The notes beneath the pieces were generated by a model. The model ran no database searches. It was not told the origin of the DNA and was given only the letters and a program-made list of their open reading frames with translations. A program made the position numbers and the translations under genes. A DNA stretch of 64,000 nt from a virus (Duplodnaviria > Heunggongvirae > Uroviricota > Caudoviricetes), in IMG/VR virus record IMGVR_UViG_3300026473_000783; one strand, written 5' to 3'. Positions 1,696 to 55,750 of the stretch are shown piece by piece (the stretch's first letter is position 1; every line of letters starts with the position of its first letter).

Positions 1696-1832
1696 TATAG
1701 CAAGTTAAAAGCCAAGTTTAAATTGGTTATATTCGATTTGAGAGTGTGATTGTCAAAAGATTAGATAGTTATTTGAGCTAAGTATTTGATTTTATTAGGT
1801 GTCAAACTTTTAGTGAGTGGTTAAAGCTTAAA
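1696..1832 (-). promoter_or_regulatory. sigma-54 promoter cassette (-24/-12 + palindromic UAS)
   Basis: Minus-strand TTGGCTTTTAACTTGCT (GG and GC 12 nt apart); UAS ttgattttattaggtgtcaaacttttag... at 1785-1832. Confidence 0.6.
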
Positions 1833-1890
1833 CGATTACCGTATTGCGACAGAGATTTGTCTCAATTCTATTTATAAAGTGGTTTTAAGA

Positions 1891-2115
1891 TTATTGAATC
1901 ACTTTATGTAAAGAACTGTTTTGAAGTGAATACGATAGGGCTTCCTCTAATAGATAAGAATATGCTTCATGATAGGTTTTGAAGGTTTTTGAATAAATCT
2001 CGTTTTTTGAATAGGTAGAAATTACTTTGTAATTTTCACTTTTCCAAATAACTAAAGATAAACGAATTGTTTCATTTTCTTTTAGCTGTAGAGAGTAGAT
2101 GTTTTCTTCATTCAT
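1891..2115 (-). CDS. hypothetical protein (74 aa)
   Basis: ORF only. Confidence 0.3.
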   Translation of the reverse strand: MNEENIYSLQLKENETIRLSLVIWKSENYKVISTYSKNEIYSKTFKTYHEAYSYLLEEALSYSLQNSSLHKVIQ

Positions 2116-2210
2116 AATGATGACTTAGTCCTTTTTTTATAAAATTTTTGTAGATTTTTAAAAAACTACAATCAATACCTTAATCTTCTTCGACTGATTC
2201 TTCTACCGTA

Positions 2211-2435
2211 TTAGAAATCCCATGTTTTTCCTGGTGGTTTTGAATCATCAAAATCAACTTCTTTGACTTCAACTTTTTCTTCTGTATCTAAAGAGTGTTC
2301 GAGTTGGAGCAAGGTACTTATTAAAGTCGCAAAAGCTTGAGAGTGTTCATGACCATGAGAATTTTTTAAATCTTTAATTCTTGCTTTAAGTTGGTTCACT
2401 AATTGTTCTGTTTCTTTTTTTGTTAATGTTTGCAT
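2211..2435 (-). CDS. hypothetical protein (74 aa)
   Basis: ATG with AGGAG RBS; sigma-28-like promoter 2456-2483 upstream. Confidence 0.45.
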   Translation of the reverse strand: MQTLTKKETEQLVNQLKARIKDLKNSHGHEHSQAFATLISTLLQLEHSLDTEEKVEVKEVDFDDSKPPGKTWDF

Positions 2436-2455
2436 ATTTTCTCCTATTATAGAGA

Positions 2456-2483
2456 TTATCGGTTGTTTGTATAAAAAACTTTA
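2456..2483 (-). promoter_or_regulatory. sigma-28-type promoter candidate
   Basis: TAAAGTTT-N12-ACCGATAA, 21 nt from ATG of 2211..2435. Confidence 0.45.
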
Positions 2484-2556
2484 ATTTGATAAGTGTTTGA
2501 TTTTAATACGGTTTAATTAAATAATGTTTGAATACGACAATTTAAAGTCTTATTTT

Positions 2557-2721
2557 AAAGCTTTTAAAATAGACATCTTCTTTTTTAAATTCTTTAAAGT
2601 TGTTTCATAGTCTGGGTTTGGAACTATTCTAATTGATTGATATACATTTTTAAATACAAAATCTCTTTCTAATGCGAAAACACACATCTCAACTGAAGCT
2701 TTTATAAGTTTTCCTTTTTAT
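2557..2721 (-). pseudogene. 3' fragment of a family-B (DUF4116-like) gene
   Basis: Minus-strand translation GKLIKASVEMCVFALERDFVFKNVYQSIRIVPNPDYETTLKNLKKKMSILKALK* with in-frame stops just upstream; no start. Confidence 0.5.
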
Positions 2722-3074
2722 AATTATCGTCAACTTTTTTTAAAAACTTAAACCTTTTTTAATTTTCTCATTTTAAAAAATTTATAATTTTCAATTCCGC
2801 AGAATTGTCCTATCTGTTCAGCGCCTGTTGTTGGATGGAGAGAGAAAGTTTTTGGTAAATCTTATGCGAAAAATAAAGAAAAAATAGAAAACCAAATTCT
2901 TCAATTAAGCTTAGATATTCAGCAAATAGAGGCTAAAATGGTTAAAGTTGATATGAGTGATTTATCTAGAAAAGATCTAGAATCGATCCATACCCTTATT
3001 TTAGCCGATGTTCATCACTAATCTTTAGAGATTAAGAACAATCCCTCTCTATTTAATAAATAAAGGGGGATTTT

Positions 3075-3302
3075 ATGGCTTTACTAGGGTCAGCGATTTT
3101 TTCAATCATATTAGGTCTTTTTATTCTTTGGATTTATTTTCTACCAACCTTTATAGCGAGTAAAAGAAATAATCACTTCTCTTCAGTTCTTTTAATCAAT
3201 TTATTTTTTGGTTGGTCTTTAGTTGGTTGGATTATTGCTTTAGCGATTGCTCTTTCTTCTCCAAAAATTATAGTTGTTGAAAAAAACGAGGATAGATCTT
3301 AA
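3075..3302 (+). CDS. superinfection-immunity (Imm)-like small membrane protein
   Basis: YFLPTFIASKRNNHFSSVLLINLFFGWSLVGWIIALAIAL resembles the phage Imm family motif (FLPsiiA..R...NlllGW..GW); two TM segments. Confidence 0.5.
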   Translation: MALLGSAIFSIILGLFILWIYFLPTFIASKRNNHFSSVLLINLFFGWSLVGWIIALAIALSSPKIIVVEKNEDRS

Positions 3303-4067: not shown

Positions 4068-4208
4068 GTTGCAAATAAAATGCCTACTTATAAAGAATTG
4101 TAGTGGATTTGATAAGAGTGAAGTGTTAAAAGCTTAGATGTTTTAGGTCTAAGCTCTTGATTTTATTAGGTGTAAAACTTTTATCTGCTGTTTAAAGATT
4201 AAACAACT
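4068..4208 (-). promoter_or_regulatory. sigma-54 promoter cassette
   Basis: AGGCATTTTATTTGCA; UAS 4156-4208; drives 3299..4057. Confidence 0.55.
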
Positions 4209-4846: not shown

Positions 4847-4999
4847 GTAGCAATTTATAGGCCAAGTTCTTGTGTTATTATATTTGATTTGAAAATATGG
4901 GTGTTAAAAGTTTGGTTAAAAGTTTGGATAGGGATTTGGGGTAAGTTGTTGATTTTATTAAGTGTCAAACTTTTAATCAATGATAAGTGATTTGACAAC
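4847..4999 (-). promoter_or_regulatory. sigma-54 promoter cassette
   Basis: TTGGCCTATAAATTGCT; UAS 4948-4999 (TGTCAAAC...TTGACA). Confidence 0.6.
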
Positions 5000-6037: not shown

Positions 6038-6177
6038 GTAGCAAACAAAAGGCCAACTTCTAAATGTCTTATATTGGATTTGGCCCTCTTAAATGTCAAA
6101 AGGTTAGTCATTTATTTTCTAACCTATTGATTTTATTAGGTGTCAAACTTTTAAGCGATGAATCAAGGATTGACACT
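6038..6177 (-). promoter_or_regulatory. sigma-54 promoter cassette
   Basis: TTGGCCTTTTGTTTGCT; UAS 6126-6177. Confidence 0.6.
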
Positions 6178-6551: not shown

Positions 6552-6690
6552 GTAGCAAGTTAAGTGCCAACTTTATGTCCGTTATAGAAGATTTAAGTCA
6601 AGTCAGTGTTTGGGAAATGATCAATGAAGGGTTTAAGTGCTTGATTTTATTAGGTGTCAAACTTTTAGGCGATGAATTAAAGATTTACAC
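6552..6690 (-). promoter_or_regulatory. sigma-54 promoter cassette
   Basis: TTGGCACTTAACTTGCT (consensus TGGCAC-N5-TTGC); UAS 6641-6690. Confidence 0.65.
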
Positions 6691-8672: not shown

Positions 8673-9461
8673 ATGAATAATCTAAAAATAAATCAAGAAG
8701 CTATATTTGAAAAAATCTACAAAATAGAGAGAAATGGTGAACTTCAAATCGTTATGTTAGATAAAGATTTAGCTGATTTTTACCAAACAGATACTCGTAA
8801 GATAAATCAATCAGTCAAAAGAAATCCTTTAAAATTTGCTGATCAAACATTTAAACTCACAAAAGAAGAGTGGCTCTCTATTTTAAAAGCAAGAAATGAA
8901 AATGAGGAAGATCCAATTGAATTTAAAGGTGGACATTTACCTTCAGTTTTTACAGAAGAAGGCGCTTTAGCGTTATCGACAGTGTTGGAATCTCCAGTTG
9001 CTATTCAAGTTTTTAAAGTGTTGCTAAAATCATTTTTTGCGATGAGAACTCTTCTAAAGGAAAGACCAGATCTCCAACTTCATCAAGAGGTTTGGGAATT
9101 AAAGAATAGAGTTATTGAAGTTGAGAAAAAAATTGGTGAAAACTCAAATCAAAACGTGGTTATTCATCAATTGACAAATAATGGAACTTTTCAACTTGGA
9201 TCAAACAACTCAATGGTTGTTAAAATCAATGACTTTGAAGATGTTGTTCAATTTATGACAGAACTTAGACGTCATCCTGGTATAAAGGATAATCTTGAAT
9301 CTAAAGAAGCGATTGATAAATCGATTCAATTAGCTCTAAAAGCGGATAAAAAAGGATTGTTGGAACAAATGAGTTCAGTCATATCAATCACCAATAACAT
9401 TGCTGATTTAGCAGTTAAAGCTTCTCCTGTGATTTTATCCATTTTATCTTGGCTTAAATAA
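8673..9461 (+). CDS. ORF6N-domain-like protein (phage antirepressor-associated N-domain)
   Basis: VMLDKDLADFYQTDTRKINQSVKRNPLKFADQTFKLTKEE resembles the ORF6N core. Confidence 0.45.
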   Translation: MNNLKINQEAIFEKIYKIERNGELQIVMLDKDLADFYQTDTRKINQSVKRNPLKFADQTFKLTKEEWLSILKARNENEEDPIEFKGGHLPSVFTEEGALALSTVLESPVAIQVFKVLLKSFFAMRTLLKERPDLQLHQEVWELKNRVIEVEKKIGENSNQNVVIHQLTNNGTFQLGSNNSMVVKINDFEDVVQFMTELRRHPGIKDNLESKEAIDKSIQLALKADKKGLLEQMSSVISITNNIADLAVKASPVILSILSWLK

Positions 9462-11111: not shown

Positions 11112-11250
11112 GTAGCAATCTAAAAGCCAACTCCTAAGTGCCTTATATTGGATTTGAATCGTTCAGTTTTCAATTGTTTGATCATTTCTTCTTTAAACCA
11201 TTGATTTTATTAAGTGTCAAACTTTTAGTGAGTGATTAGAAGATGTTCGG
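11112..11250 (-). promoter_or_regulatory. sigma-54 promoter cassette
   Basis: TTGGCTTTTAGATTGCT; UAS 11201-11250. Confidence 0.6.
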
Positions 11251-13488: not shown

Positions 13489-13620
13489 GTAGCAATCTCG
13501 ATGCCAAATTCTTTTATTGTTATATTGGACTTGAGTCGTTCAGTTGTCAATTGTTTGGTCGTTTCTTTTCTAACCCCTTGATTTTATTCACTGTCAAACT
13601 TATCGGCGGTGTTTAAGAGT
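13489..13620 (-). promoter_or_regulatory. sigma-54 promoter cassette
   Basis: TTGGCATCGAGATTGCT; UAS 13578-13620. Confidence 0.65.
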
Positions 13621-13622
13621 TT

Positions 13623-14042
13623 TTATTTATTTCTATTTGATAAGTAAATAATGTTAGATATATTTTTTTGTTTAATTTCTAAAACTTCTCTAGATTTAGG
13701 AGAATTTGGAAAGACATTCTCTTTCTTTTGTGTTAGTTGAACCAAACCATTTAAAATTTTTGAAATTAAAGTTCCAAAAATAAAAACTGTTGTAAATAAA
13801 AGGACAAATCCCAAAACTGCAACTGACAGACCCAGCCCTAAAGGTCCAAAGATAAAAGACATTCCTGAAAGAATAGAAAGAGCTTCTACACTATCTCTTT
13901 CTCTTAAGTCTACTGTAAATAGTCCAATAGAAATCACGATTATTGATCCAACAATTCCAGATAAATACCATTGCCAAGATAGGAGTGGAGCGGCCTTGGC
14001 TTGATTTAGGATATTTGCGATTAAAGTTAATATGTTTGTCAT
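13623..14042 (-). CDS. polytopic membrane protein
   Basis: RBS AAGAGGAG; paralog of 29613..30029 (MTN.L.LIANILNQA...). Confidence 0.5.
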   Translation of the reverse strand: MTNILTLIANILNQAKAAPLLSWQWYLSGIVGSIIVISIGLFTVDLRERDSVEALSILSGMSFIFGPLGLGLSVAVLGFVLLFTTVFIFGTLISKILNGLVQLTQKKENVFPNSPKSREVLEIKQKNISNIIYLSNRNK

Positions 14043-14066: not shown

Positions 14067-14220
14067 GTTGCAAAAATGACGCCAAGTTTTAAAGTGCTTA
14101 TAAAGAGCTTGAGTTTAGTTTTGTCAAAACTTTGGATAGATATTTTAGATAAACTATTGATTTTATTCACTGTCAAACTTATAGGCGGTGTTTAAAAGAT
14201 GTTAGATTGGTTTTTGATTT
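14067..14220 (-). promoter_or_regulatory. sigma-54 promoter cassette
   Basis: TTGGCGTCATTTTTGCA; UAS 14176-14220. Confidence 0.55.
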
Positions 14221-17174: not shown

Positions 17175-17310
17175 GTAGCAATTTAAATGCCAAATCCAAA
17201 GTTTATATATTGGATATAAAAGTGTTTGGATGTCAATAAAATGGTCAATTTAGCTTTAACCACTTGATTTTATTAGGTGTCAAACTTATAGGCGATGTTT
17301 AAAAGATTTT
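17175..17310 (-). promoter_or_regulatory. sigma-54 promoter cassette
   Basis: TTGGCATTTAAATTGCT; UAS 17263-17310. Confidence 0.6.
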
Positions 17311-17383
17311 CAATTCTAAAATGGTAAAGGTTTGTTTTTATGAATATAATTTGTGGGTTGTTTTATTCAAAAAATTGTTAAAA

Positions 17384-19189: not shown

Positions 19190-19320
19190 GATGCAATCAA
19201 GAGGCCAGTTTTAAAACTGATCCTGTTTGATTTGAGCGAGCTTGTTGTCAATAAAATGGTCATTTGTTATCTAACTACTTGATTTCATTAGGTGTAAAAG
19301 TTTTAGGCAGTGATTAACCC
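19190..19320 (-). promoter_or_regulatory. sigma-54 promoter cassette
   Basis: CTGGCCTCTTGATTGCA; UAS 19278-19320 (variant TGTAAAAG). Confidence 0.55.
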
Positions 19321-19331
19321 TTGTTCACCAA

Positions 19332-20185: not shown

Positions 20186-20320
20186 GAAGCAAATTTGAAG
20201 CCAATCCCTTAAAGCGTTATGGTTGATTTGAATATGGTGCTGTCAAAAGTTTAGATAACGAAAATCGTTAACTACTTGATTTTATTAGGCGTAAAAGTTT
20301 TAGGCAGTGATTAACCCTCA
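20186..20320 (-). promoter_or_regulatory. sigma-54 promoter cassette
   Basis: TTGGCTTCAAATTTGCT; UAS 20275-20320; drives HD-hydrolase operon. Confidence 0.6.
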
Positions 20321-20457
20321 TACAGGAAGATTCGATCCATTTGCATAAATTTTTCAATAATCCATATCATCACTATCTTCGAGCCAGCCTAAATCAACTA
20401 TGTCGGCGATAATTTTAATAATTTGAAAAGCATCTTCGATATCGGGTTGATATAGTT

Positions 20458-21433: not shown

Positions 21434-21570
21434 GGTGCAATTCCAATACCAGCATTAAGTCGCTTATGTTTGATTTAATAGAGGCTCGTGTCAAAACAAA
21501 TGACAAACATCCACTAAGATATTGATTTTATTTGGTGTCAAACTTTTAGGCGATGATTAAAGGATTGACA
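21434..21570 (-). promoter_or_regulatory. sigma-54 promoter cassette
   Basis: CTGGTATTGGAATTGCA; UAS 21522-21570 with perfect TGTCAAAC-N20-TTGACA; ATG 15 nt from -12. Confidence 0.55.
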
Positions 21571-22277: not shown

Positions 22278-22415
22278 GATGCAATCAAAATGCCAGCATC
22301 TAAAGCCTTTATATTGTGTTTAAAATCCTTCATTGTCAAAGAGTTGATCATTCTTTGTCTAACCCCTTAATTTTATTAGGTGTCAAACTTTTAGGCGATG
22401 AATAGAACTTTTACA
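22278..22415 (-). promoter_or_regulatory. sigma-54 promoter cassette
   Basis: CTGGCATTTTGATTGCA; UAS 22366-22415. Confidence 0.6.
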
Positions 22416-22948: not shown

Positions 22949-23088
22949 GTAGCAAATGAAATGCCAGCCTCTAAAGCCTTTATGTTTGATCTAACAAGAG
23001 AGGGTTGTTTAAGAAATTGACAAATCTATTCTAAGTGGTTGATTTTATTAGGTGTCAAACTTATAAACGACGACTAAACTTTTAACAT
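22949..23088 (-). promoter_or_regulatory. sigma-54 promoter cassette
   Basis: CTGGCATTTCATTTGCT; UAS 23038-23088. Confidence 0.6.
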
Positions 23089-23644: not shown

Positions 23645-23780
23645 GAAGCAAGAATAGAGCCAGCTTCAAATTAAACAGGTTAGACCTAATAGAACTGATT
23701 GTTTAGAGAATTGACATAAATCTTCTAACCACTTGATTTTATTGGGTGTCAAACTTATAGGCGATGGAGAATTGTTTTAC
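23645..23780 (-). promoter_or_regulatory. sigma-54 promoter cassette
   Basis: CTGGCTCTATTCTTGCT; UAS 23733-23780. Confidence 0.55.
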
Positions 23781-24382
23781 AATCCAAGAGCAAGAGCTTT
23801 TTCTGGAGTCATCTTGTAAGTGAATCGAATTCTTCTCGAAACTTTAAATGTTGATATTTGGTTTGAGTCAATAGTTCCCATCTTATAATTTGGTCCAAAA
23901 GTTTTTTCTAATCTTTCATTGCTCATGTTGAAAAGAGCAGTCATCGCGATTGGTAAAAATTTTCTTTTATCTTCACTGATCACATAGTGGATTTTCTTAG
24001 ATTTTGGAACTTTTGTTGTTTTCATCGAATGTTTCACATTGATTTTAGCGTTATGTGTTTGATTAAGTTCATTCATTTTAGCTAAAAATTGAGATCCATG
24101 AGAAGGTCTTTTTTTTAAGATTTGAATTTCCCAAATGTGGATAAGTTCATGAGCAATAACTGAGATCAATTCTTGTTCTGTCCAGTTAAAGTTTTTAGAA
24201 ATTTTCATTTCTCTCACAAGAACTATTTGCCCAAATAAAGTGTTAAAATGAACTTGTCCAGCTGCTTTTGACGTGTTAGATAGCTTGATTGGAAAATTGA
24301 TATTAAGCTCTCCATTGAACATTGAAGCATTTACATGGTGAGTTAGTTCTATGATTTGTTGAAGAAGTTGTTTGTTTTCCAT
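23777..24382 (-). CDS. SprT-like zinc metalloprotease-family protein
   Basis: VIAHELIHIWE...HGSQFLAKM (HExxH + HG..F); start reassigned to Met 24382, 15 nt from -12. Confidence 0.5.
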   Translation of the reverse strand: MENKQLLQQIIELTHHVNASMFNGELNINFPIKLSNTSKAAGQVHFNTLFGQIVLVREMKISKNFNWTEQELISVIAHELIHIWEIQILKKRPSHGSQFLAKMNELNQTHNAKINVKHSMKTTKVPKSKKIHYVISEDKRKFLPIAMTALFNMSNERLEKTFGPNYKMGTIDSNQISTFKVSRRIRFTYKMTPEKALALGL

Positions 24383-24393: not shown

Positions 24394-24532
24394 GATGCAA
24401 TTTAATTGCCACCTTTAAATGGAATCTATTCGATCTAATAGAGGGGATTGTTTAGAGAGTTGACACAAATCTTCTAAGTGTTTGATTTTATTAAGTGTCG
24501 ATCTTTTAGTCGGTGTTTAATCGTTTGTCAAT
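24394..24532 (-). promoter_or_regulatory. sigma-54 promoter cassette
   Basis: GTGGCAATTAAATTGCA; UAS 24482-24532 (variant). Confidence 0.5.
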
Positions 24533-24929: not shown

Positions 24930-25139
24930 AGATTTATCTTCTCTTCATTTGTGGTAATTGTCAATGTTTATTTAAATTCTTCGATTTTGTGATTGGAACG
25001 AATAAATTCTTCAATTTCTCCACTAAGATTCCAAAAGATAACAGCACCTTTTGGGGGAATAATTTTAATAGGGGTTAAAGTTTGTGGATTTGATAAGCTT
25101 AATTGTTAAAAGTTTAGACGGTTTATGGTCTAAGCTCTT

Positions 25140-25185
25140 GATTTAAGGAGGTGTCAAACTTTTATCTGATGTTTAAAATATAATC
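25140..25185 (-). promoter_or_regulatory. UAS-like palindromic site without a recognisable -24/-12 partner
   Basis: cttgatttaaggaggtgtcaaacttttatctgatg; no GG-N10-GC found between here and 24929. Confidence 0.3.
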
Positions 25186-25669
25186 AGCGATTAATTGCGT
25201 CTAAAATAGCTTTCTTTTCTTTTAGATTTCGAAGCGTTGTCTCAAAATCTGGATTTGAAACTATTTTTACATCTCTAAAACAAATCGGAAACTCTTCTAA
25301 AGCTAAAATACATAAATCAACGCTTTGATTTTGGATTTCTGTCATAACAAAAGGATTTAAACCCATAGCTAATTCACATAAATGTTTTTTTTGATCTTTA
25401 ACAAATTTAATAGACCACGGATCTCTGTTTATTGCTGATTTACAGATTGAATCGTTTTGATTTAAGATTACGGATAAAATTGTAGAATCTATTGATAAGT
25501 ATTTACAGACTTCCTCTTCACTAATTTGATTTAGCCAATTTTTAAAAAGATTCATTTCTTGATCAGAGCATATTTCAGTTCTTGACCAATTCATAAATGA
25601 ATAATGGTTATGCCCTTTATAAGATTCTAGTTTTGATTCAAATAATGTTTTTATGTCTTCATTTGTCAT
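25184..25669 (-). CDS. family-B DUF4116-like repeat protein
   Basis: MTNEDIKTLFE...VKIVSNPDFETTLRNLKEKKAILDAINR. Confidence 0.55.
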   Translation of the reverse strand: MTNEDIKTLFESKLESYKGHNHYSFMNWSRTEICSDQEMNLFKNWLNQISEEEVCKYLSIDSTILSVILNQNDSICKSAINRDPWSIKFVKDQKKHLCELAMGLNPFVMTEIQNQSVDLCILALEEFPICFRDVKIVSNPDFETTLRNLKEKKAILDAINR

Positions 25670-30051: not shown

Positions 30052-30190
30052 ATAGCAAAAATTAAGCCAAGCTTTAAGTCGCATATAGATGATTTGAGAC
30101 AAGGGGTGTAAAAACTTTGGATAGATATTTTAGATAAGTGGTTGATTTTATTAGATGTCAAACTTTTAATCGATGAGTAAAAGCTTGACA
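30052..30190 (-). promoter_or_regulatory. sigma-54 promoter cassette
   Basis: TTGGCTTAATTTTTGCT; UAS 30141-30190. Confidence 0.6.
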
Positions 30191-34841: not shown

Positions 34842-34980
34842 TTTAGCAAATAATAGGCCAACCCTAAATCGAATATATTCTCTTTAAAGGACTTAACTGT
34901 TAAAGATTTAAACAGATATCTTCTAAGCTATTGATTAGACAGCTGTTAAACTTTTAATCGATGAATAAAGAATTAACAGC
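34842..34980 (-). promoter_or_regulatory. sigma-54 promoter cassette
   Basis: TTGGCCTATTATTTGCT; UAS variant TGTTAAAC...TTAACAG at 34930-34980. Confidence 0.55.
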
Positions 34981-36004: not shown

Positions 36005-36146
36005 GAAGCAAGAATGAGGCCAGTGTAAGATTGGTTTATATTTGATTTAATAGATGTGATGTCAATTTTTTAGACTATGAATTGAGTTAAATACTTGATT
36101 TTATTAGGTGTCAAACTTTTAGTGAGTGTTTAAAGGTTTGACACGT
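36005..36146 (-). promoter_or_regulatory. sigma-54 promoter cassette
   Basis: CTGGCCTCATTCTTGCT; UAS 36094-36146. Confidence 0.6.
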
Positions 36147-36983: not shown

Positions 36984-37186
36984 TTCTTTATAATAAGATA
37001 AAAGACCAATAAAGTCAAACAAAATGTGAATTAAGCGATAATTGTAAATTTTTTCTTATATTTAATTTGTTTGAATTTTAATTACTCTTTACTTTATCAT
37101 AGAAGAAAAAGCAAAACTATCAACTTTTTAATATATATTATATGAAATCTGGAGATTAAATAATAGTAAAATCCTTTAAGTATTTG

Positions 37187-37235
37187 ATTTTATTAGATGT
37201 AAAACTTATAAACGCTGTTTAAAAGTTAGATATCG
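37187..37235 (-). promoter_or_regulatory. UAS-like site upstream of 36159..36983 without a recognisable -24/-12
   Basis: tttgattttattagatgtaaaacttataaacgctg. Confidence 0.3.
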
Positions 37236-37397
37236 ATCAAAATCAATCGTTTTATACATTATAATGTCTTTTTTAAGTTTTTTTCTTTAAAATGTATATT
37301 ATAATGTTCAATTCATATCAAAAAGTACATTATAATGTCCTTTTTTTGATAAATAATTGATTTTACTAAATTATTCCATATTCCGATTTGGAATATT

Positions 37398-38991: not shown

Positions 38992-39120
38992 GTAGCAATT
39001 GATAGGCCAATTTAAAACAAACCTATTCGATTTAATAGATAGGATTGTTTAAAGATTTGATAGAAATACTTTAAGTTATTGATTTTACTAGATGTAAAAC
39101 TTTTAATCGATGTCAAAAAA
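38992..39120 (-). promoter_or_regulatory. sigma-54 promoter cassette
   Basis: TTGGCCTATCAATTGCT; UAS 39077-39120. Confidence 0.6.
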
Positions 39121-39158
39121 ATAACTATCAATTCTATAAAATTTTTTAAAAAACATCT

Positions 39159-39455: not shown

Positions 39456-39592
39456 GTAGCAATCTTTAGGCCAATCTTTAAATGAATCTATTCGATTTAA
39501 TAGATAGGATTGTTTAAAGATTTGATAGAAACTTTTTAAGTTATTGATTTTATTAGGTGTCAAAGGTTTGTGCGGTGTTTAAAAGATGTTTA
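39456..39592 (-). promoter_or_regulatory. sigma-54 promoter cassette
   Basis: TTGGCCTAAAGATTGCT; UAS 39543-39592; drives two small-peptide genes. Confidence 0.6.
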
Positions 39593-42203: not shown

Positions 42204-42207
42204 AATT

Positions 42208-43087: not shown

Positions 43088-43161
43088 AAATTTCCTTCAT
43101 ATAAAATTTTAACATAAATTCTATATAAATGATTATTTTTTTATAAATATCTCAAATCGAA

Positions 43162-43419: not shown

Positions 43420-43430
43420 AACTTTTTCAA

Positions 43431-45875: not shown

Positions 45876-46022
45876 TAAGCAATAAAGGTGCCAAGTCATG
45901 TCGTTTTTATTTCATTTAAAAACGCTTCTAAACGAGCACTGTTTAACTTTTTTACAAATCTTAGCTAAGAGGTTGATTTTGTTAGGTGTCGAGCTTATAG
46001 GCGATGTTAAGAGGTTTTACAC
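45876..46022 (-). promoter_or_regulatory. sigma-54 promoter cassette
   Basis: TTGGCACCTTTATTGCT; UAS 45971-46022. Confidence 0.65.
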
Positions 46023-47370: not shown

Positions 47371-47844
47371 TTATTTTAAAGAATCTAAAATAGCTTTTTT
47401 TTCATATAAATTCTTAAGAGTTGTCTCATAATCTGGATTTGGGACGATTCGAACAAAACGATAACTAGAAAAACTTTCTTTTACTAAAGCTAAAATACAC
47501 AAGTCAACGCTTTGTTCTTTTACATAACCAATGGTCAAAGAGTTTCCTCTTACAGCTAATTCACACATTTCTTTTGTTTGATCTTTGATAAATCTAATGG
47601 AAAATGAGTTGACTTCAATCGACATTTCACAGAGAGTTTTTGTTTGATTTTTAATTACAGCTAAAATCGAACAATCACGCTCAATGTAATTTAAAAGTTC
47701 TGATTCTTCAATTGAATTAAAATAATTCGATAAAAGATCAAATTCTTTTTTTGTACAAACCGACTTATCAATCCATTCAAAGAAAAAATCATCGGTTTTT
47801 TGAAATTTTTCTTCAAATATTTTTTGAATATCTCTACTCTTCAT
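47371..47844 (-). CDS. family-B DUF4116-like repeat protein
   Basis: ...VRIVPNPDYETTLKNLYEKKAILDSLK; preceded by repeat copy A and 65-bp leader shared with nuclease gene 50138. Confidence 0.55.
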   Translation of the reverse strand: MKSRDIQKIFEEKFQKTDDFFFEWIDKSVCTKKEFDLLSNYFNSIEESELLNYIERDCSILAVIKNQTKTLCEMSIEVNSFSIRFIKDQTKEMCELAVRGNSLTIGYVKEQSVDLCILALVKESFSSYRFVRIVPNPDYETTLKNLYEKKAILDSLK

Positions 47845-48168
47845 TTATTTATCCAATAGCCTTTTTTTTCATATCTTTATTTTACATTTTTTTATTTAAA
47901 AAAACAACTATTTTAAATACTTGTCTCCTTTTTGGTCGCAATATATCATTGAACATTTATTCAGTGGGTTTCGATGAGAACGTGTATCTTTTTGGTCGCA
48001 ATATATCATTGAACCAATCGGAGATTATCTCCGAAATCCTTCGTTAGAAGGTTCTTCTCTCATCAAAACCAATATATGGTCTCTCCAGAAGCTTAAACTC
48101 TCCGAGGAGTTTTCCCCATTAAAGTGGGGTCATGAACTTATTTAACCACTTCTTCCCTATTTTGTCAA
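47845..48168 (-). repeat. structured repeat copy A plus shared 65-bp leader, immediately 3' of tnpB
   Basis: Element 47988-48168 abuts tnpB stop (48178); 27-nt terminal segment duplicated (47928-47954 and 47988-48014) around a unique 33 nt; 47845-47927 is the inverted copy of 50086-50147. Confidence 0.6.
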
Positions 48169-50085
48169 ATAAAAGATTCAAAGAATTTTATTGTTTTTCT
48201 TTGTATTTGAAATTTTAATAAGACCTCTTCCAACTTTATAAATAACAAGTGCGGCATTATGATCTGCGTCCATTCTGTAATTACAACTGGTACAGATAAA
48301 TTTTTTGTCTTTTCGACTATCTTGATCCGTCTTCCCACAACAGCTACAAGTTTGAGAAGTGAACTTAGGGTCAACTTTTTTAACATTTTTTGAGTACTCA
48401 TTTAATTTTTGAGCAAAATAACCCCAGTTTTTAGAAAGAATAGATCTGTTTAAACCAGTTTTTTGAGAAACTTTCTTTCCAGGATTGTCAACATTGCCTT
48501 TAGCTGTTTTTGTCATATTTGATATTTTTAAATCTTCAATATAGATATCTTCACTTTTTTTCGCAATTAAAGTGGCTTCTTTTTTTAGAAAATTTTCTTT
48601 TTGTCTTTTAAGTTTTAATTGAAGCTTTGAGATTTTTCTAATTTCTTTTTTAAAATTTTTAGAGTCTCTATCTTTTTTTCTTCTATACAACATAGATTTC
48701 TTTTTTGGAATTATTTTTTCTAAATTTAAAATATATTCTGGAAAATCAATGCTTTTATATTTGACCTGATTTGGGTTTTTATTTGACACAATCGCAATAG
48801 CGGTTTTTGTTGAAATACCTCGGTCAATTCCAACTGAGCTTTTTTTGACAACTTCTTTTTTTACAGTTTTTTCTTGAATAGAAAAAATTACAAACCACTC
48901 ACTTCCCTCTTTTTTAAACTGAACAGTTCTTACATTTTCAACTAGAAAAGGTTTAAAGCATTTAAATTTCAAATATCCAAGGTCAAATTTTTCTTTTATA
49001 TCTTCATAATTTTTAGAAATACAAAAATAAGCATATGAAGAATTTGAATTTTCTTCAAAAGTCGTGTTCCATAAATTTTTAAACGCATTTTTAAAACCAA
49101 TAAATCCACTGTCTCTCTCACTTTTATAGCGAGGAATTCCAGCTTTTTTCGGGTCTTTTTTTAAATTTCTAAAAAATTGTTTATAAGAATCCTCACTTTT
49201 ATCAAATACATTATTAAAAAAGCTTGAACAAAACGGAAGAATTTTGTTTTTACGATTCTTTTTCATTTGAGTAAATTCTTTTTGTAGAACAGCTTTTGAA
49301 AAATTTTCATTTTTAAATGAACTTTGGAAATGATAAGGAATCTTGATTGAAAATACTTTTTTGTCTTTTTTCGATAAGTTCAGCTCTTTTCCAATGTTTG
49401 AATTAAGCCTGTTTTCAAAATTAAAGAAAACAACTGTTAAAAAACTTCTTAATTTATTCCGTTCCTTTAACTCTTCTTCTTTTTCGCTATCTTTTAGTTT
49501 TTTAAATTTATCAAAACTTGCTGAAATCAACTCATTTAATTCTTTAATTCTACGATCCGAAATTTTGATCGATTGTCTTTCCGCGATTTTTATTATTTGT
49601 TTCGCATCGAAAATATCTATTTTGTCTTTTTTCTCAATTTTATTAAAATTATAAAAATCTTGAGATTCTATTTGTTTTTCAACAATCGCATTCCATAAAT
49701 CTTTAGAAGCATTTTCCATTTTTTCTAAAATTGATCTCTGTTTTTCATTTAAATATAGTTTATATTTATAGTTTTTTATAGTCGTTTCCATATATTCATT
49801 TAAACACATTTTTCAATAAAAATAAAGAATTAAGACTTTGAACCTAAAAAAATATGTATTTTTCTAAGTAATTGATTTTATTGAGTTATTTTTTTTCTTG
49901 ACAAAATAGGGAAGAAGTGGTTAAATAAGTTCATGACCCCACTTTAATGGGGAAAACTCTAAAAAATTAGAGTTTAAGCTTCTGGAGAGACCATATATTG
50001 GTTTTGATGAGAGAAGAACCTTTTAACGAAGGATTTCGGAGATAATCTCTGATTGGTTCAATGATATATTGCGACCAAAAAGGAG
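47988..50085 (-). mobile_element. candidate TnpB-only IS200/IS605-like (IS1341-type) element, or tnpB inserted between inverted promoter-leader repeats
   Basis: tnpB bracketed by inverted ~200-bp repeats; no tnpA; the right-end/omega-RNA-like structured sequence sits directly after the tnpB stop. Confidence 0.45.
48178..49809 (-). CDS. tnpB: TnpB-family RNA-guided endonuclease homolog (IS200/IS605 OrfB / Cas12-like), 543 aa, catalytic motifs intact
   Basis: N-term NYKYKLYLNEKQRSILEKM...LWNAIVEK (TnpB HTH pattern); RuvC-I VGIDRGI; RuvC-II IYIEDLKISNM; zinc finger CSCCG...CTSCNYRM; RuvC-III DADHNAALVI; ~140 aa longer than typical TnpB. Confidence 0.75.
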   Translation of the reverse strand: MCLNEYMETTIKNYKYKLYLNEKQRSILEKMENASKDLWNAIVEKQIESQDFYNFNKIEKKDKIDIFDAKQIIKIAERQSIKISDRRIKELNELISASFDKFKKLKDSEKEEELKERNKLRSFLTVVFFNFENRLNSNIGKELNLSKKDKKVFSIKIPYHFQSSFKNENFSKAVLQKEFTQMKKNRKNKILPFCSSFFNNVFDKSEDSYKQFFRNLKKDPKKAGIPRYKSERDSGFIGFKNAFKNLWNTTFEENSNSSYAYFCISKNYEDIKEKFDLGYLKFKCFKPFLVENVRTVQFKKEGSEWFVIFSIQEKTVKKEVVKKSSVGIDRGISTKTAIAIVSNKNPNQVKYKSIDFPEYILNLEKIIPKKKSMLYRRKKDRDSKNFKKEIRKISKLQLKLKRQKENFLKKEATLIAKKSEDIYIEDLKISNMTKTAKGNVDNPGKKVSQKTGLNRSILSKNWGYFAQKLNEYSKNVKKVDPKFTSQTCSCCGKTDQDSRKDKKFICTSCNYRMDADHNAALVIYKVGRGLIKISNTKKNNKIL

Positions 50086-50147
50086 ACAAGTATTTAAAAT
50101 AGTTGTTTTTTTAAATAAAAAAATGTAAAATAAAGATATGAAAAAAA
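49865..50147 (+). repeat. structured repeat copy C (inverted relative to A) plus 65-bp leader running into nuclease gene
   Basis: Begins with truncated UAS (taagtaattgattttattgag), then TTGACA 49898-49903 -N17- TTAAAT 49921-49926, then structured region, then leader identical to the one upstream of 47371..47844. Confidence 0.6.
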
Positions 50148-50998
50148 TTATTTATTTAATCGTACTTATCGCCCCTCTTTGTTATGGATATTCATTTAAA
50201 AAATTATTTAAAGAAGTTGAAAAATCTTTTCACCAAGATCATAAAACAACTTCCCATAAAGTCAACAAAGGTCAAATTCAAATTCCAAACGAACCATTCA
50301 CCAAGGCTGAAGCTCCCCAATCTGTTAGTTATGGAGAATCTTTTGGTCGATGTGACGTTTTTTTTCCTAAAAAAAGAGCCCCTGCTATTGATTCAAGACT
50401 AACCTCTAAATCAAGATCAATCTGCTCAACTAAATTTGCGGTCCTTTATTCAACTGATTACAAATCTCCTATTTATACGATTGAAAAACTTTCTTATTTA
50501 AATTTTGTATCTAAAAAAGTGGAAAGATCAAACAAGTTTAAAGAAGATTATAGATTGAAAGATTCTGAAAAATCAACACTTGATGACTATAAAGAAGTCT
50601 CTTTTCAATTCGATAGAGGCCACAATGTGCCTTCTGGAGATTTTGTTGGAGGGTCTGAATTTGAAAATGAAGAAACCTTCTACCTTTCCAATATGTCAGC
50701 CCAAGACGCAACTCTGAATAGAGGTATTTGGGCCAAATCTGTAGAAAAAGCGGTTAGAAGCTATGTTCAAAGATCTTCTGGTGATATTTATGTATTTACA
50801 GGTGGCTATTATGGAAAAAATCCGGTTAGATTTGGCAAAAGTAAAGTGGCTATACCAAATTATTTCTGGAAATTGGTTTATGACGATTATACTAAAAAGT
50901 CATGGGTTTATTGGATTGAAAATAATTCAACAGATAAGCTTAAAGTTTTGTCTTATCAAGAATTTGTCGATAAAACTCAACTTAAGCTTTTAGATTAA
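50138..50998 (+). CDS. secreted DNA/RNA non-specific endonuclease (Serratia-nuclease/NucA family)
   Basis: Signal peptide; DRGHNVPSGDF and FYLSNMSAQDATLNRGIWAKSVE match the DRGH...N...N.G.W..E active-site signature. Confidence 0.65.
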   Translation: MKKIIYLIVLIAPLCYGYSFKKLFKEVEKSFHQDHKTTSHKVNKGQIQIPNEPFTKAEAPQSVSYGESFGRCDVFFPKKRAPAIDSRLTSKSRSICSTKFAVLYSTDYKSPIYTIEKLSYLNFVSKKVERSNKFKEDYRLKDSEKSTLDDYKEVSFQFDRGHNVPSGDFVGGSEFENEETFYLSNMSAQDATLNRGIWAKSVEKAVRSYVQRSSGDIYVFTGGYYGKNPVRFGKSKVAIPNYFWKLVYDDYTKKSWVYWIENNSTDKLKVLSYQEFVDKTQLKLLD

Positions 50999-51729: not shown

Positions 51730-52128
51730 ATGGCAAATAACCCCACAAACTATAAACAAGTCATTTTAATTCGTGAAGATCTCAATTTAAGTGCTGGAAA
51801 ACTTGCCGCTCAAGTTGCTCATGCTTCGCTAGGAGCTATTTTATCTATTTCGAAAATTGAAGATAAAAAATTAACAATTGAGCTGGATGATCCTACTTTT
51901 CTTTGGATTAGTGAGCGATTTACAAAAATTTGCTTAAAAGTAAAAAATGAAGAAGAGCTTCTGTTCTACTACAATAAAGTTAAGGAATCAAACTTAAAAC
52001 ATGCGATTATAAAAGATGCTGGCTTTACTGAGCTTGAATCTCCAACATTGACTTGTCTAGGGATTGGTCCTGATTTCAATGATAGGATTGACGCAATTAC
52101 AAAAAAATTAAGGCTATACAACAAGTGA
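51730..52128 (+). CDS. peptidyl-tRNA hydrolase PTH2 family
   Basis: KQVILIREDLNLSAGKLAAQVAHAS....DAGFTELESPTLTCLGIGP....KKLRLY matches PTH2 signature. Confidence 0.65.
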   Translation: MANNPTNYKQVILIREDLNLSAGKLAAQVAHASLGAILSISKIEDKKLTIELDDPTFLWISERFTKICLKVKNEEELLFYYNKVKESNLKHAIIKDAGFTELESPTLTCLGIGPDFNDRIDAITKKLRLYNK

Positions 52129-52634
52129 AAAAACCTGAAGATTTTGGAATCACTAAATATGATAAGAAAAAGTTTAAAAAAACTGGAATTTTAGATTGCT
52201 TCCAGAATGTCAATTTAAGTAATCTAAAATTAACAAAAATTCCCTTTAACTTTGGAACCATTGAAGGTTTTTTTTCTTGCTCAAACAATAATTTAAACTC
52301 ATTAAAAGGATCTCCAAGAATTGTTTCAGGTAGCTTTTATTGTTTTAACAATAAATTAAAATCATTAAAAAATTCTCCAGAAAAAGTTTTTTGTGACTTT
52401 TATTGTGATAATAATAAATTAAAATCTTTAAAAAATATATCAGAATGCCATCGAGACGTTTATTGCGAAGAAAATCCGATAGATATGACAGTAAAAGACT
52501 GGATTGAGGTTTTAGAAAAATGTCCAAATAGCGATTTATTCAAATACTGTCAAATAACTTCTGACAATTCAACTTATGAGAATGTCTTAAATTGTCTTAA
52601 AGAGAAATTAGCTATTTTAGAAGCTTTAGATTAA
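52125..52634 (+). CDS. family-A LRR-like protein
   Basis: GTG start overlapping PTH2 stop (GTGA); VKKPEDFGITKYDKKKF...; tail YCQITSDNSTYENVLNCLKEKLAILEALD. Confidence 0.55.
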   Translation: MKKPEDFGITKYDKKKFKKTGILDCFQNVNLSNLKLTKIPFNFGTIEGFFSCSNNNLNSLKGSPRIVSGSFYCFNNKLKSLKNSPEKVFCDFYCDNNKLKSLKNISECHRDVYCEENPIDMTVKDWIEVLEKCPNSDLFKYCQITSDNSTYENVLNCLKEKLAILEALD

Positions 52635-53108: not shown

Positions 53109-53182
53109 ATTTTTATCCTTTTAATATATTTAGTTTAAATCGAATTTATCTAAAAAGCAAATAAATCTTATTATGATAAAAA

Positions 53183-53923
53183 TTATTGAAGAGAGCGAAC
53201 AATCGATGAAGCTAAAAAACGAGGTGCACTTGCAGAAGTTCCAACAAATTGTCTTTTATCGTATCTAAAATAGTCATAAATATCAATAGAACCTCTATAA
53301 TAATCGACAGCGTCTATAGAACTACCATAATTGCTACCTTTATCAAAAGATTTGCGATCTAGACTAATTCCACCTACACATATTTTATTTTTTAATCGAT
53401 AAGAACAAAGCTCGTTTTGAGAAGCGTCAGCGCTATCATTTCCTGCAGAGACTATTATTTTTGTTTTTTCAGAAACCTCCAATAAAAGATCTTTTTCTGA
53501 TTGTTTCAAATTTGGAATAATCATTGAGATATTTATAGCGGTTAAATTAAGTGATTTAAATTGAGATAAGCAATTTTCGATAGATAGAGTTTCATCCATT
53601 TGACAGTAGATAATTTCTACATTTGATACTTTGTATTTTTCAAAAATAGAAACCATTTCGCTTATAACCGCTTCCCCATGAAGGTCATTAGCTTGCTCAA
53701 TAAAAACAACTTTAGGTTTTGATATTTGAATTGAAGATTTGTATTTTAAAGAAGATTCTGTCCATTTGACAGGATACACGTCAATAACCCCAATTTTGAT
53801 TTTTTCATTTTTTGAAATATCAAATTTAAAAGAAATACTTCTCTGAACAAGCTCTTTGACCCGTTCTGATGGGTGCTGGACTACGCTTGATAATAATAGG
53901 CACATTACTAATTTTTTAAACAT
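53183..53923 (-). CDS. secreted subtilisin-like (S8) protein, short/degenerate
   Basis: IGVIDVYP, HGEAVISEM, FVGTSASAPRFLA; ATG 13 nt from sigma-54 -12. Confidence 0.5.
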   Translation of the reverse strand: MFKKLVMCLLLSSVVQHPSERVKELVQRSISFKFDISKNEKIKIGVIDVYPVKWTESSLKYKSSIQISKPKVVFIEQANDLHGEAVISEMVSIFEKYKVSNVEIIYCQMDETLSIENCLSQFKSLNLTAINISMIIPNLKQSEKDLLLEVSEKTKIIVSAGNDSADASQNELCSYRLKNKICVGGISLDRKSFDKGSNYGSSIDAVDYYRGSIDIYDYFRYDKRQFVGTSASAPRFLASSIVRSLQ

Positions 53924-53932
53924 ACATAAAAT

Positions 53933-54070
53933 GTAGCAAGAAAAAGGCCAAATCTATATATTTTATATTGGATTTGGGGTATGGAAATGTTTAAAGATTT
54001 TACAGAGAATGATCTAAGTCGTTGATTTTATGAGGTGTTAATCTTTTAGTCGGTGGTTAAAAGATTGACA
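53933..54070 (-). promoter_or_regulatory. sigma-54 promoter cassette
   Basis: TTGGCCTTTTTCTTGCT; UAS 54021-54070. Confidence 0.6.
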
Positions 54071-54459
54071 TAGGGAGTTTATTTAATCACCAACTCTCAT
54101 AGGGTAGATTCAATGGGTGCTTGTTGTATAATAAAAGAAAGTGTTTATTTTAAACGATATATTTTTATTTAAGTATTGTTTTAAAAAACAAGAAAAAAGG
54201 CGACTAGGTAAGGGGGGCTAGCCGCCATGGGGGGTACTCATGTAAGGATAAGATACTTTTTAAAAATTATCAACTCTTTATATTAAAATACCAAATAAAA
54301 TTTTATAAACTATTGATTTCATTTCTTTTTTTTTGAAAAATTTTAAATAGGCTAATTGACTTTCAATGCAGAAAATAGATTTTTAATTTCTCCAAAAAAT
54401 CTAGAATGACCATTAAATAGAGTTTTTAATAGTAAATTCTTATTTTTTAAATTATTGAA

Positions 54460-55038
54460 TTAGTCAAAAAGAGCTAATATAGCTTGTTTTTCTTTTAAAC
54501 CTTTTAAAGTCGACTCATAAGTGGAATTATCTGAAACAATTAAACAAAGTTTAAAAAAGTTTCTGCTCGAATGTTGAGTTTTTGTTAAAAATTCTATCCA
54601 CTCTTGGACAGTCATGTCTAAAGGATTTCCAAAAAAAACCATTGAACCTTTTACTTCAGGAAGATTGTTTATTTTTTTCAATTTATTGTATTGACAATAA
54701 AAACCGCCAATAGCTTTTAATGGACTTCCTTCTAATGAAGTGAGTTGATTATAGGAACAATCGCAAATCTGATTGACTTCTTTAGGAAAATACTGTGATG
54801 ATTTAAGTTGATTATGAGAACAATCAAAATCTCCCAAAACTTTTTTAGGAGAACCTTTTAGTGATTTAAGATTATTTACTGATAAAATAAAATCTCCATG
54901 AGCGATTCCAAAATTAAAAGGGATTTCTGATAAATTTCGATTGCTCAAGTCGACATTCTGAAAACAATCCAAAACTCCCGTTTTTTCAAACTTTTCTTTA
55001 TCATATTTGGTAATTCCAAAATCTTCCGGTCTTTTCAT
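54460..55038 (-). CDS. family-A LRR-like protein
   Basis: MKRPEDFGITKYDKEKF...; co-operonic with metzincin gene. Confidence 0.55.
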   Translation of the reverse strand: MKRPEDFGITKYDKEKFEKTGVLDCFQNVDLSNRNLSEIPFNFGIAHGDFILSVNNLKSLKGSPKKVLGDFDCSHNQLKSSQYFPKEVNQICDCSYNQLTSLEGSPLKAIGGFYCQYNKLKKINNLPEVKGSMVFFGNPLDMTVQEWIEFLTKTQHSSRNFFKLCLIVSDNSTYESTLKGLKEKQAILALFD

Positions 55039-55046
55039 AAATCCTC

Positions 55047-55601
55047 TTAATTTTTAACTAAACTATCAACTATCCCTAATTGTTTCTTCCAATCTTTAAC
55101 TAAATCAAGATCCCAACTTCTCGATACAAAATCCCCCAAATAAGGATACATCAATTTTTTGTCATGAGTATGTTGAAGCCCTAAAGAATGCATTAACTCG
55201 TGCCTTGCTAATGTTCTAAAATCAACATACGGATAAGCGTCATTAAACAAAATATCTCTTTTAAAGATTGAAATGCCAAAATAAAGCGTTAAAGTTCTGG
55301 CTTGTTCTCCAATTTTAAAAGAATCTCTACTTTTCCAGTAAAGTCCATTTTTAAAAGTTAAATATCTATTTTGAGAATCAATATCTTCACCTACACTAAA
55401 AACCTCAAATCCAGCGACTTGATTAAAGCTTTTCATTTCTTCAATCATTTCTTTCTTTTTATTTGAAGGAAACTCTTTATGAAAAGAGAATTGAATCGGA
55501 AATTTTCTGGATAAAACCGGACTATCCCCTACAAATAAATATAAACGATTCTGATTTAGGGTTAAAAGTGGAAATAATAGAGTTAAGATAAATGTTTTCA
55601 T
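55047..55601 (-). CDS. metzincin-type zinc metalloprotease
   Basis: ARHELMHSLGLQH; track start TTG, Met 55601 is 15 nt from -12. Confidence 0.55.
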   Translation of the reverse strand: MKTFILTLLFPLLTLNQNRLYLFVGDSPVLSRKFPIQFSFHKEFPSNKKKEMIEEMKSFNQVAGFEVFSVGEDIDSQNRYLTFKNGLYWKSRDSFKIGEQARTLTLYFGISIFKRDILFNDAYPYVDFRTLARHELMHSLGLQHTHDKKLMYPYLGDFVSRSWDLDLVKDWKKQLGIVDSLVKN

Positions 55602-55612
55602 ATAGTTCAATT

Positions 55613-55750
55613 AAAGCAAAATATGTGCCTGGCCTATAAGCTTTATATTAGATTTGGTGGAAAGAATTGTTTAAAGATTTGATAGTTTTCTGCTAAGTTG
55701 TTGATTTTATGAGGTGTCAATCTTTTAGTCGATGATTAAAAGAATGACAT
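55613..55750 (-). promoter_or_regulatory. sigma-54 promoter cassette
   Basis: CAGGCACATATTTTGCT; UAS 55700-55750. Confidence 0.55.

Follow-up and report, generated by a model that had tools for sequence, protein, structure and literature searches.

Which element could stand, in one orientation and with one internal spacing, in front of some two dozen mostly unrelated genes? The question is raised by a 64,000-nucleotide stretch of the IMG/VR record IMGVR_UViG_3300026473_000783, assigned to the Caudoviricetes. We call this whole stretch the window, and coordinates refer to it unless a contig is named. A reading made from its sequence alone had proposed that 24 minus-strand genes or operons carry the same cassette, composed of -24 and -12 promoter elements of the sigma-54 (RpoN) type and a palindromic enhancer site further upstream. 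The array of cassettes is a real and unusual feature, and we discuss below what it probably does.

Geometry of a reiterated module

The repeated unit is a regulatory module of ~135 bp. A profile hidden Markov model (HMM) built from a MAFFT alignment identified 26 copies in the window, and with three extra copies just beyond it, on overlapping metagenome contigs, the array reaches ~29 copies in ~73 kb. The core of the upstream site, AAGTTTGACACCTAATAAAATCAA, has 25 matches in the window with up to three mismatches, all of them on the minus strand, where none is expected. The promoter pattern YTGGC-N7-TTGCW has 20 exact matches, again all on the minus strand, compared with 0.24 expected from dinucleotide shuffles, and no match in the window lies outside the cassettes. 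Four more sites deviate once in the -24 element (TAGGC at 4084, CTGGT at 21450, GTGGC at 24410 and CAGGC at 55629). The 24 sites counted earlier, with GG and GC 12 nt apart, are thus confirmed as 20 exact sites and four with a single deviation. GG-N10-GC is present in 24 of the 26 window cassettes and in the three outside copies, with a spacing that never varies; the two other cassettes, with cores at 25161 and 37207, have lost their promoter half. The pairing of promoter and upstream site also stands, at a tighter spacing than the ~90-110 bp first given: counted from the first base of the core, GG lies 93-96 nt away in 22 of the 24 cassettes, and the remaining two have distances of 103 and 108 nt. 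One outside copy is on the opposite strand, where it harbours a perfect CTGGCAC-N5-TTGCT and faces genes of that strand. Altogether, the orientation of the module matches that of the following gene in 29 of 29 copies.

Positions are numbered along the transcribed (minus) strand, the C of the GC doublet being -12, so that yTGGC-N7-TTGCW spans -27 to -11. G-25 and G-24, T-15, T-14, G-13 and C-12, as well as W-11, are found in all 24 promoters, C-23 in 23 and T-26 in 22, and the seven bases between the two elements are free. Information content is maximal at TGGC and TTGC and low where the -10 element of a sigma-70 promoter would fall. From about -146 to -112, centred near -129, lies an imperfect 13-9-13 bp palindrome, TGTCAAACTTTTA-a.CAyCGcc-TAAAAGTTTGACA. 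Its left arm is degenerate and much weaker than the right one, and its 9-nt centre (CAyCGcc) is itself conserved. The palindrome is directly abutted by an A/T tract and AATCAA-N4-TTA, the conserved form of which is CCTAATAAAATCAA-N4-TTA. The exact core consensus of integration host factor (IHF), WATCAANNNNTTR, is present at -103 +/-1 (-103 to -91) in 21 of the 24 promoters and between -116 and -101 in 23 of them, for a background of 15-18 matches on each strand of the 64 kb; a second IHF core occurs near -80 in three cassettes. Two semi-conserved blocks are found closer to the promoter, TTTTGACA or TTTAAACA near -70 and CAAATCCAATATAA near -45. Near -70, TTGACA is perfect in 11 cassettes, and half of the cassettes have TAAACA instead. 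The dyad had been described with an N20 spacing, a pattern that gave no match; the actual arrangement is TGTCAAAC-N21-TTGACA. The CAAATCCAATATA block noted in the spacer is present, with only moderate conservation.

The arms of the palindrome pair in 70.7% of cells, compared with ~40% when one arm is slid, and no covariation is detected beyond that of shuffles, 224 of 500 of which reach the observed pairing and 54 of 500 the covariation score. Predicted hairpin energies vary from 0 to -15.6 kcal/mol across copies. Because of this lack of covariation, the palindrome is best read as a protein site and not as a hairpin, and we propose that it binds a dimeric activator.

The cassettes of the window are listed below, each named after the coordinate of its core. 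Distances in brackets run from the C at -12 to the start codon; SD stands for a Shine-Dalgarno sequence, ORF for an open reading frame, and leaderless starts are predictions.

c1809, 1699..1834 (-): palindrome, IHF-like site and TTGGCTTTTAACTTGCT; SD and GTG 1670 (30 nt); 94-aa signal-peptide protein
c4180, 4070..4205 (-): TAGGCATTTTATTTGCA, one deviation; leaderless ATG 4057 (14 nt); 252-aa secreted protein
c4972, 4849..4997 (-): TTGGCCTATAAATTGCT; 13-nt insertion between upstream site and promoter; SD and ATG 4824
c6150, 6040..6175 (-): best match to the family profile; palindrome with left arm 6175-6163, centre 6162-6154 and right arm TAAAAGTTTGACA 6153-6141; IHF-like AATCAAtaggTTA 6132-6120; TTGACA 6099-6094; CAAATCCAATATAA 6082-6069; TTGGC 6056-6052 and TTGCT 6044-6040; SD and ATG 6007
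c6664, 6554..6689 (-): TTGGCACTTAACTTGCT (TGGCAC-N5-TTGC); ATG 6529; terminator-like hairpin at 6715-6685, just upstream
c11224, 11114..11249 (-): TTGGCTTTTAGATTGCT; SD and ATG 11090, then a 450-aa gene, 9454-10806
c13601, 13491..13626 (-): TTGGCATCGAGATTGCT; SD and ATG 13463; gene paralogous to that of c4972
c14180, 14069..14205 (-): TTGGCGTCATTTTTGCA; SD and ATG 14042
c17287, 17177..17312 (-): TTGGCATTTAAATTGCT; SD and ATG 17136; heads a multi-gene unit to 14231
c19302, 19192..19327 (-): CTGGCCTCTTGATTGCA; SD and ATG 19166, then a 460-aa gene
c20299, 20188..20324 (-): TTGGCTTCAAATTTGCT; SD and ATG 20155; HD_4 hydrolase
c21545, 21436..21570 (-): CTGGTATTGGAATTGCA, one deviation; leaderless ATG 21422 (15 nt); LspA-like Peptidase_A8
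c22390, 22280..22415 (-): CTGGCATTTTGATTGCA; SD and ATG 22252; membrane protein
c23062, 22951..23087 (-): CTGGCATTTCATTTGCT; ATG 22940 (12 nt) or SD-led ATG 22919; signal-peptide protein
c23756, 23647..23781 (-): CTGGCTCTATTCTTGCT; leaderless ATG 23634 (14 nt)
c24505, 24396..24530 (-): GTGGCAATTAAATTGCA, one deviation; leaderless ATG 24382 (15 nt); SprT-like protein
c25161, 25064..25205 (-): decayed; upstream site retained, -24/-12 promoter gone
c30165, 30054..30190 (-): TTGGCTTAATTTTTGCT; SD and ATG 30029; heads a unit to ~25184
c34953, 34845..34978 (-): diverged core; TTGGCCTATTATTTGCT; SD and ATG 34820; 33-aa hydrophobic peptide (34820-34719), with further genes after it
c36118, 36007..36143 (-): CTGGCCTCATTCTTGCT; ATG 35994 (14 nt); lipoprotein-type subtilase (Peptidase_S8)
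c37207, 37171..37249 (-): decayed; upstream half alone left
c39102, 38994..39127 (-): TTGGCCTATCAATTGCT; second IHF-like core at -79; leaderless ATG 38980 (15 nt); LspA-like protein
c39567, 39458..39592 (-): TTGGCCTAAAGATTGCT; SD and ATG 39434; 35-aa ORF, followed directly by c39102
c45996, 45878..46021 (-): TTGGCACCTTTATTGCT; leaderless ATG 45865 (14 nt); GNAT protein; heads a unit of ~15 genes to 39590
c54045, 53935..54070 (-): TTGGCCTTTTTCTTGCT; same variant in both palindrome arms (AATC/GATT); leaderless ATG 53923 (13 nt); 246-aa secreted protein
c55724, 55615..55749 (-): CAGGCACATATTTTGCT, one deviation; leaderless ATG 55601 (15 nt); M10-like metalloprotease

Mean pairwise identity between the copies is 0.80 in the 34-bp core, 0.84 in the -24 element and 1.00 in the -12 element. 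In the spacers it is 0.28-0.40, for a random expectation of 0.30, and spacer lengths are kept. As the blocks are conserved while the spacers are random at constant length, the sites and their helical phasing appear to be under selection rather than recently copied, and by the same measure the copies are old. Two pairs of cassettes were copied along with their genes, c14180/c30165 (genes 82% identical, spacer sequence shared) and c21545/c39102 (genes 74% identical). The view that the cassettes precede unrelated genes thus holds for most of them and must be qualified for these duplicated units. In a Pfam scan, the downstream genes were found to code for two LspA-like proteins, an HD_4 hydrolase, a GNAT protein, a subtilase, M10-like and SprT-like proteins and short membrane peptides, and many had no Pfam match. 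At 39329-39592, two tandem cassettes are separated by the 35-aa ORF (39434-39329) alone.

We searched for the module elsewhere. No cassettes were found in L128 and L130, two contigs of the same replicon, or in L129, from a related organism, and no cassette-like DNA was found in phage or plasmid collections. Among the matches listed for a degenerate cassette pattern in JGI metagenome contigs, there were chance singles only, and none matched the cassette HMM. The exact 24-mer and peptide patterns of a paralogue family described below gave no match in GTDB representative genomes or in an IMG/VR search; a single 18-mer match in IMG/VR is located within a coding region and was discarded as due to chance.

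The module as a proposed enhancer-dependent sigma-54 promoter

With some reserve, we favour a reading in which a full enhancer-dependent promoter of the sigma-54 class is reiterated, one per cassette, at the heads of accessory gene units. In 24 of 24 promoters, GG and GC are one helical turn apart, as in TGGCAC-N5-TTGCW. Upstream activating sequences are dyads located ~80-150 bp upstream of the promoter, and the palindrome centred near -129 falls within this range. Furthermore, an IHF core with an upstream A/T tract is found between the palindrome and the promoter, as in IHF-assisted systems. These features suggest recognition by RpoN, binding of an activator at the palindrome and IHF-type bending at the -103 core.

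The start codons provide a further argument. Their distance from the C at -12 is bimodal: nine units start at 13-15 nt and 15 units at 25-42 nt, with no start codon at 16-24 nt among the 24 promoter-bearing cassettes. The 15 distant starts have Shine-Dalgarno sequences of the AGGAG type. The nine close ones, the minus-strand ATGs at 4057, 21422, 23634, 24382, 35994, 38980, 45865, 53923 and 55601, lack such a sequence, so that their mRNAs are probably leaderless; at least seven unrelated gene families are represented among them. At sigma-54 promoters, transcription starts ~11-14 nt past the GC doublet. The leaderless ATGs are thus found at positions +1 to +4 as predicted for sigma-54, which makes them independent internal evidence for a promoter with sigma-54 phasing. 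At the -70 block, most leaderless units have the TAAACA variant and most SD-led units have TTGACA.

In the mechanism that we propose, sigma-54 RNA polymerase would be held as a closed complex on the -24/-12 elements, and an AAA+ activator bound to the palindrome would open this complex through DNA looping. Transcription would begin ~12 nt past GC and yield mRNAs that are leaderless (nine units) or have leaders of 13-30 nt with a Shine-Dalgarno sequence (15 units). A Gram-negative host, or another part of the genome of >0.4 Mb, would provide the sigma factor and possibly also IHF and the activator. In this way, ~70 kb of cargo (secreted, membrane and unknown-function proteins) would come under tight all-or-none control. 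With their shared sequence of ~135 bp, the repeats probably also provide the homology by which gene units are shuffled, like the cassettes of T4-type phages discussed below.

Known sigma-54 regulons under a single activator have few promoters, with variable geometry. The closest analogues of the module are the classical promoters that combine sigma-54, a bacterial enhancer-binding protein (bEBP) and IHF, such as Pu-XylR, nifH-NifA, pspA-PspF and glnAp2-NtrC (established knowledge; PMC5095919, PMC4987338). They share TGGC-N7/8-TTGCW with the invariant GG/GC phasing, a dyad site 100-150 bp upstream, an IHF core in between and a start ~12 nt past GC, which is predicted here. Unlike them, the array consists of 29 near-identical modules in ~73 kb, the internal spacing of which is constant to within +/-1-2 bp. 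In addition, the IHF-like site is immediately adjacent to the palindrome, two extra conserved blocks are present and the genome is probably that of a phage. A single sigma-54-like promoter has been described in Pseudomonas phage YuA (PMC10914365, citing Ceyssens 2008). As far as that account goes, YuA resembles the present case in having phage genes under a host sigma-54-type promoter, and differs from it in having neither a reiterated module nor a fixed enhancer/IHF architecture. Literature searches did not turn up any description of a phage with a dense array of sigma-54 promoters.

Several observations weigh against this reading. Neither rpoN nor a gene for the AAA+ sigma-54 activator that bEBP dependence calls for was found in the ~150 kb of accessible replicon sequence (window, L002, L005, L128 and L130). 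Pfam Sigma54_activat had no match among the scanned ORFs, and six-frame translations of the window, L002, L005, L126, L128, L130, L131 and the related-organism contig L129 contain no GAFTGA, ESELFG or RpoN-box motif. Because no activator or rpoN was found, control by 'one bEBP' and RpoN dependence are what we infer. The looping geometry suggested by the sequence-only reading is thus partly supported, by the invariant -24/-12 elements, the orientation, the leaderless ATGs and the palindrome near -129. The IHF-like site adjoins the palindrome at -103 instead of lying midway to the promoter as in textbook cases, and a single bend there would not carry the activator to -12. The left arm of the palindrome is weak in many copies, and positions -22/-21 prefer N-T and not the canonical A-C. 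In 11 cassettes, a weak CAATAT-like hexamer follows the perfect TTGACA at a distance of ~17 nt, and sigma-70 may thus account for some initiation. Finally, the textbook model leaves the IHF-palindrome adjacency and the two extra blocks unexplained.

Alternative explanations

The promoter might instead be read by an element-specific factor, i.e. a phage sigma-like protein or a phage RNA polymerase, with the palindrome binding a phage regulator. We regard this as unlikely. The replicon is phage-like, large phages often have reiterated class-specific promoters, rpoN and activator genes were not seen, and a small helix-turn-helix (HTH) protein with a faint match to sigma-70 region 4 is encoded next to the array. 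Nevertheless, the sigma-54 consensus is matched at every defining position, with the strict 10-bp GG/GC phasing, sigma-54 promoters are usually accompanied, as here, by an exact IHF core and a palindrome far upstream, and no phage polymerase or sigma gene was found in the available sequence. The HTH protein is a candidate for a DNA-binding regulator, but with 155 residues it is too small for a sigma-54 activator. Its gene (L005 16387-16854, minus strand) borders the array on the downstream side, ~2.3-2.8 kb outside the window start.

Transcription by sigma-70 is improbable. It would use TTGGCN as a -35 element, or the internal TTGACA-N17-CAATAT pair, TGGC..TTGC being incidental or part of a leader. 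The putative -10 regions are unconserved, yet the TTGC that would be in the spacer is invariant, and in 9-10 cassettes the start codon would precede the sigma-70 start site. A usable -10 hexamer is found 16-18 nt past TTGGCN in 8 of 24 sites, compared with 12% at random positions, an example being TTGGCC-N16-TATAAT at 6056-6029. The perfect TTGACA near -70 also fits a sigma-70 promoter, but TAAACA replaces it in half of the cassettes and its pairing with CAATAT is weak. Over the region, matches to the sigma-70 consensus are no more frequent than by chance (85 for 83 expected). Based on these chance-level matches, the unconserved -10 and the position of the start codons, sigma-70 was rejected as a general explanation.

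We likewise give little credence to the possibility that the repeats are kept mainly as recombination linkers or boundaries of mobile gene cassettes, promoter activity being secondary. The precedent, and the other close analogue of the module, is the promoter-early stem-loop (PeSL) cassettes, reiterated units of ~100 bp that shuffle ORFans in the hyperplastic regions of T4-type phages (PMC2839356, PMC4122927). Like the module, they combine a palindrome and a promoter followed by a Shine-Dalgarno sequence and ATG, precede small ORFans in hyperplastic stretches of large phage genomes and probably serve as substrates for modular shuffling. PeSLs have strong, sigma-70-like -35/-10 promoters and G/C-rich terminator hairpins, whereas the module has a -24/-12 promoter and, 90 bp upstream of it, a palindrome rich in A/T whose arms do not covary; the two types of cassette have no sequence homology. 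Thus, neither a sigma-70-like early promoter (-10 unconserved, usable hexamers in 8 of 24) nor a stable terminator stem-loop (A/T-rich, no T-run, no covariation) is found in the module. An association with ORFans and duplicated units are seen in the array, which is 100% identical in all available assemblies, so that no cassette-bounded indel could show among them.

The same cassette is found before unrelated genes, some cassette and gene units are duplicated and two copies are decayed, all of which would suit linkers. However, spacers that are saturated with changes, with short blocks and exact spacing preserved, are not required by homology-driven recombination alone. No integrase or recombinase gene adjoins the array, terminal inverted repeats and R/L boxes of the attC type are absent, and with all assemblies of the region identical no shuffling event is observable. 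Phage morons and the cassette arrays of chromosomal integrons (VCR/attC) resemble the region in that a repeated element alternates with small accessory genes that are unrelated to each other and point the same way. In integrons, attC follows promoterless genes and needs IntI, neither of which applies here, and morons lack a common conserved regulatory sequence. An integron was rejected, as there is no IntI integrase within the array or at either end and the repeats are 5' of the genes and contain a promoter. Miniature inverted-repeat transposable elements or insertion sequences (IS) were rejected as well: the cassettes lack terminal inverted repeats, and IS-like repeats flank only a TnpB gene.

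That the palindrome is an RNA or DNA hairpin (terminator, attenuator or processing site) acting on read-through transcripts is very improbable, for although the arms are complementary at the consensus level and copies 30165, 36118 and 55724 fold well (-11 to -16 kcal/mol), many others fold at only 0 to -3 kcal/mol, the 9-nt 'loop' is conserved, pairing does not covary beyond shuffles and no T-run follows the palindrome. With no Rfam match for the cassette and no covariation, an RNA element was rejected.

Replicon context and neighbouring genes

The uncultured replicon was assembled identically in ENA ERZ27251563 and ERZ27251577, JGI 3300024350 and Logan SRR7686837 and SRR7686838, and proteins of the window are found on contigs of up to 419,463 and 233,476 bp. 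It has a GC content of ~29% and a mean gene size of ~180 aa in four separate regions, and most genes have no Pfam match. Phage-typical genes code for an Rv2179c-like exonuclease (phrog_255), a DUF2201/VWA and AAA ATPase pair, ThyA, Dda-like helicases, a T4 Imm-like protein, and ORF6N, GmrSD_N and SprT proteins. A fusion of polynucleotide kinase, phosphatase and RNA ligase 1 (Pnkp-phosphatase-Rnl1) has full-length homologues in Twort-like phages. An FtsH homologue without the periplasmic FtsH_ext domain is encoded next to ThyA, outside the window (L128 5241-7058, on the 419 kb contig). It belongs to a clade of ~17 metagenome-only sequences at 47-72% identity, bacterial FtsH proteins being at ~40-47%. 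GTDB representative genomes do not contain the replicon, which also fits a phage. Capsid, portal and terminase genes were not seen in the ~150 kb of replicon read.

It is fairly likely that the replicon is a huge phage or phage-like element, an assignment that we hold at this level because no capsid or terminase gene was seen. RpoN would therefore come from the host, and the genes behind the cassettes probably form a mobile-element gene set relying on a host sigma factor and not a chromosomal regulon. Shine-Dalgarno use, lipoprotein signals and OmpA or outer-membrane-protein barrel domains point to a Gram-negative host outside the Bacteroidota.

We tentatively envisage that a huge phage, with contigs up to 419 kb, runs a ~70 kb accessory region from ~29 copies of a rigid enhancer-IHF-sigma-54 module. 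The region would remain silent until a single AAA+ activator fires, about a third of the mRNAs would be leaderless, and the modules would double as PeSL-like linkers that recruit cargo. Sigma-54 promoters are normally few per activator and chromosomal. If this picture is correct, the array would represent the first phage-borne sigma-54 regulon, readable straight from sequence, and the activator could be encoded elsewhere by the phage, or the host could provide it in the form of a stress sensor of, for example, the PspF or RtcR type. It would also mean that mobile elements are able to place whole regions of cargo under enhancer-dependent transcription with zero leak, and that unrelated genes can be recruited through a regulatory cassette as the unit. 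The array offers a natural set of 24 promoter variants of identical geometry for studies of the sigma-54/IHF/activator architecture, as well as a sequence tag for locating the activator and the host.

Other features of the region were recorded. A 4.9 kb segment containing one cassette is inverted between two assemblies that are otherwise 99.7-99.8% identical (L002 4526-9402 and L003 1-4877, corresponding to ~64000-68876 in window coordinates). The junctions are in short inverted repeats, and the segment is either invertible or an assembly artefact at a repeat. The TnpB/IS605 OrfB gene (48178-49809, minus strand), with a Cas12f-like TNB domain, is flanked at 47845-48177 and 49810-50137 by inverted repeats of ~200 bp with 94% identity. 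A third, solo copy of this repeat, 94-98% identical to the two flanking ones, is found 4 kb away at 43453-43860, where other assemblies appear to break.

A paralogue family with 23 members in the window has a shared C-terminal module (QTVDLCLLALE...VRIVPNPDYETTLKNLKEKKAILEALK) with a faint match to DUF4116, and some members harbour LRR-like repeats of 22 aa at the N-terminus. Its genes are distributed over 842-1306, 21557-21964, 25184-27097, 30744-32534, 37937-44328, 47371-47844, 52125-52634 (+), 54460-55038 and 60143-63401. Only 36 relatives were found among 5.8 billion proteins, nearly all on contigs of the same replicon. Three large minus-strand paralogues of 450, 460 and 299 aa (9454-10806, 17384-18766 and 55753-56652) have 24-31% mutual identity. 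Their only family match is a sub-threshold one, between the C-terminus of the first and Tox-REase-9, and they might represent toxin-like cargo. Lastly, phage-conflict and unusual genes are scattered over the window, coding for a T4 Imm-like superinfection immunity protein (3075-3302, +), an ORF6N-domain protein (8673-9461, +), a GmrSD N-terminal-domain protein (25712-26545, -), a peptidyl-tRNA hydrolase of the archaeal/eukaryotic type (PTH2; 51730-52128, +) and a non-specific endonuclease (50138-50998, +).

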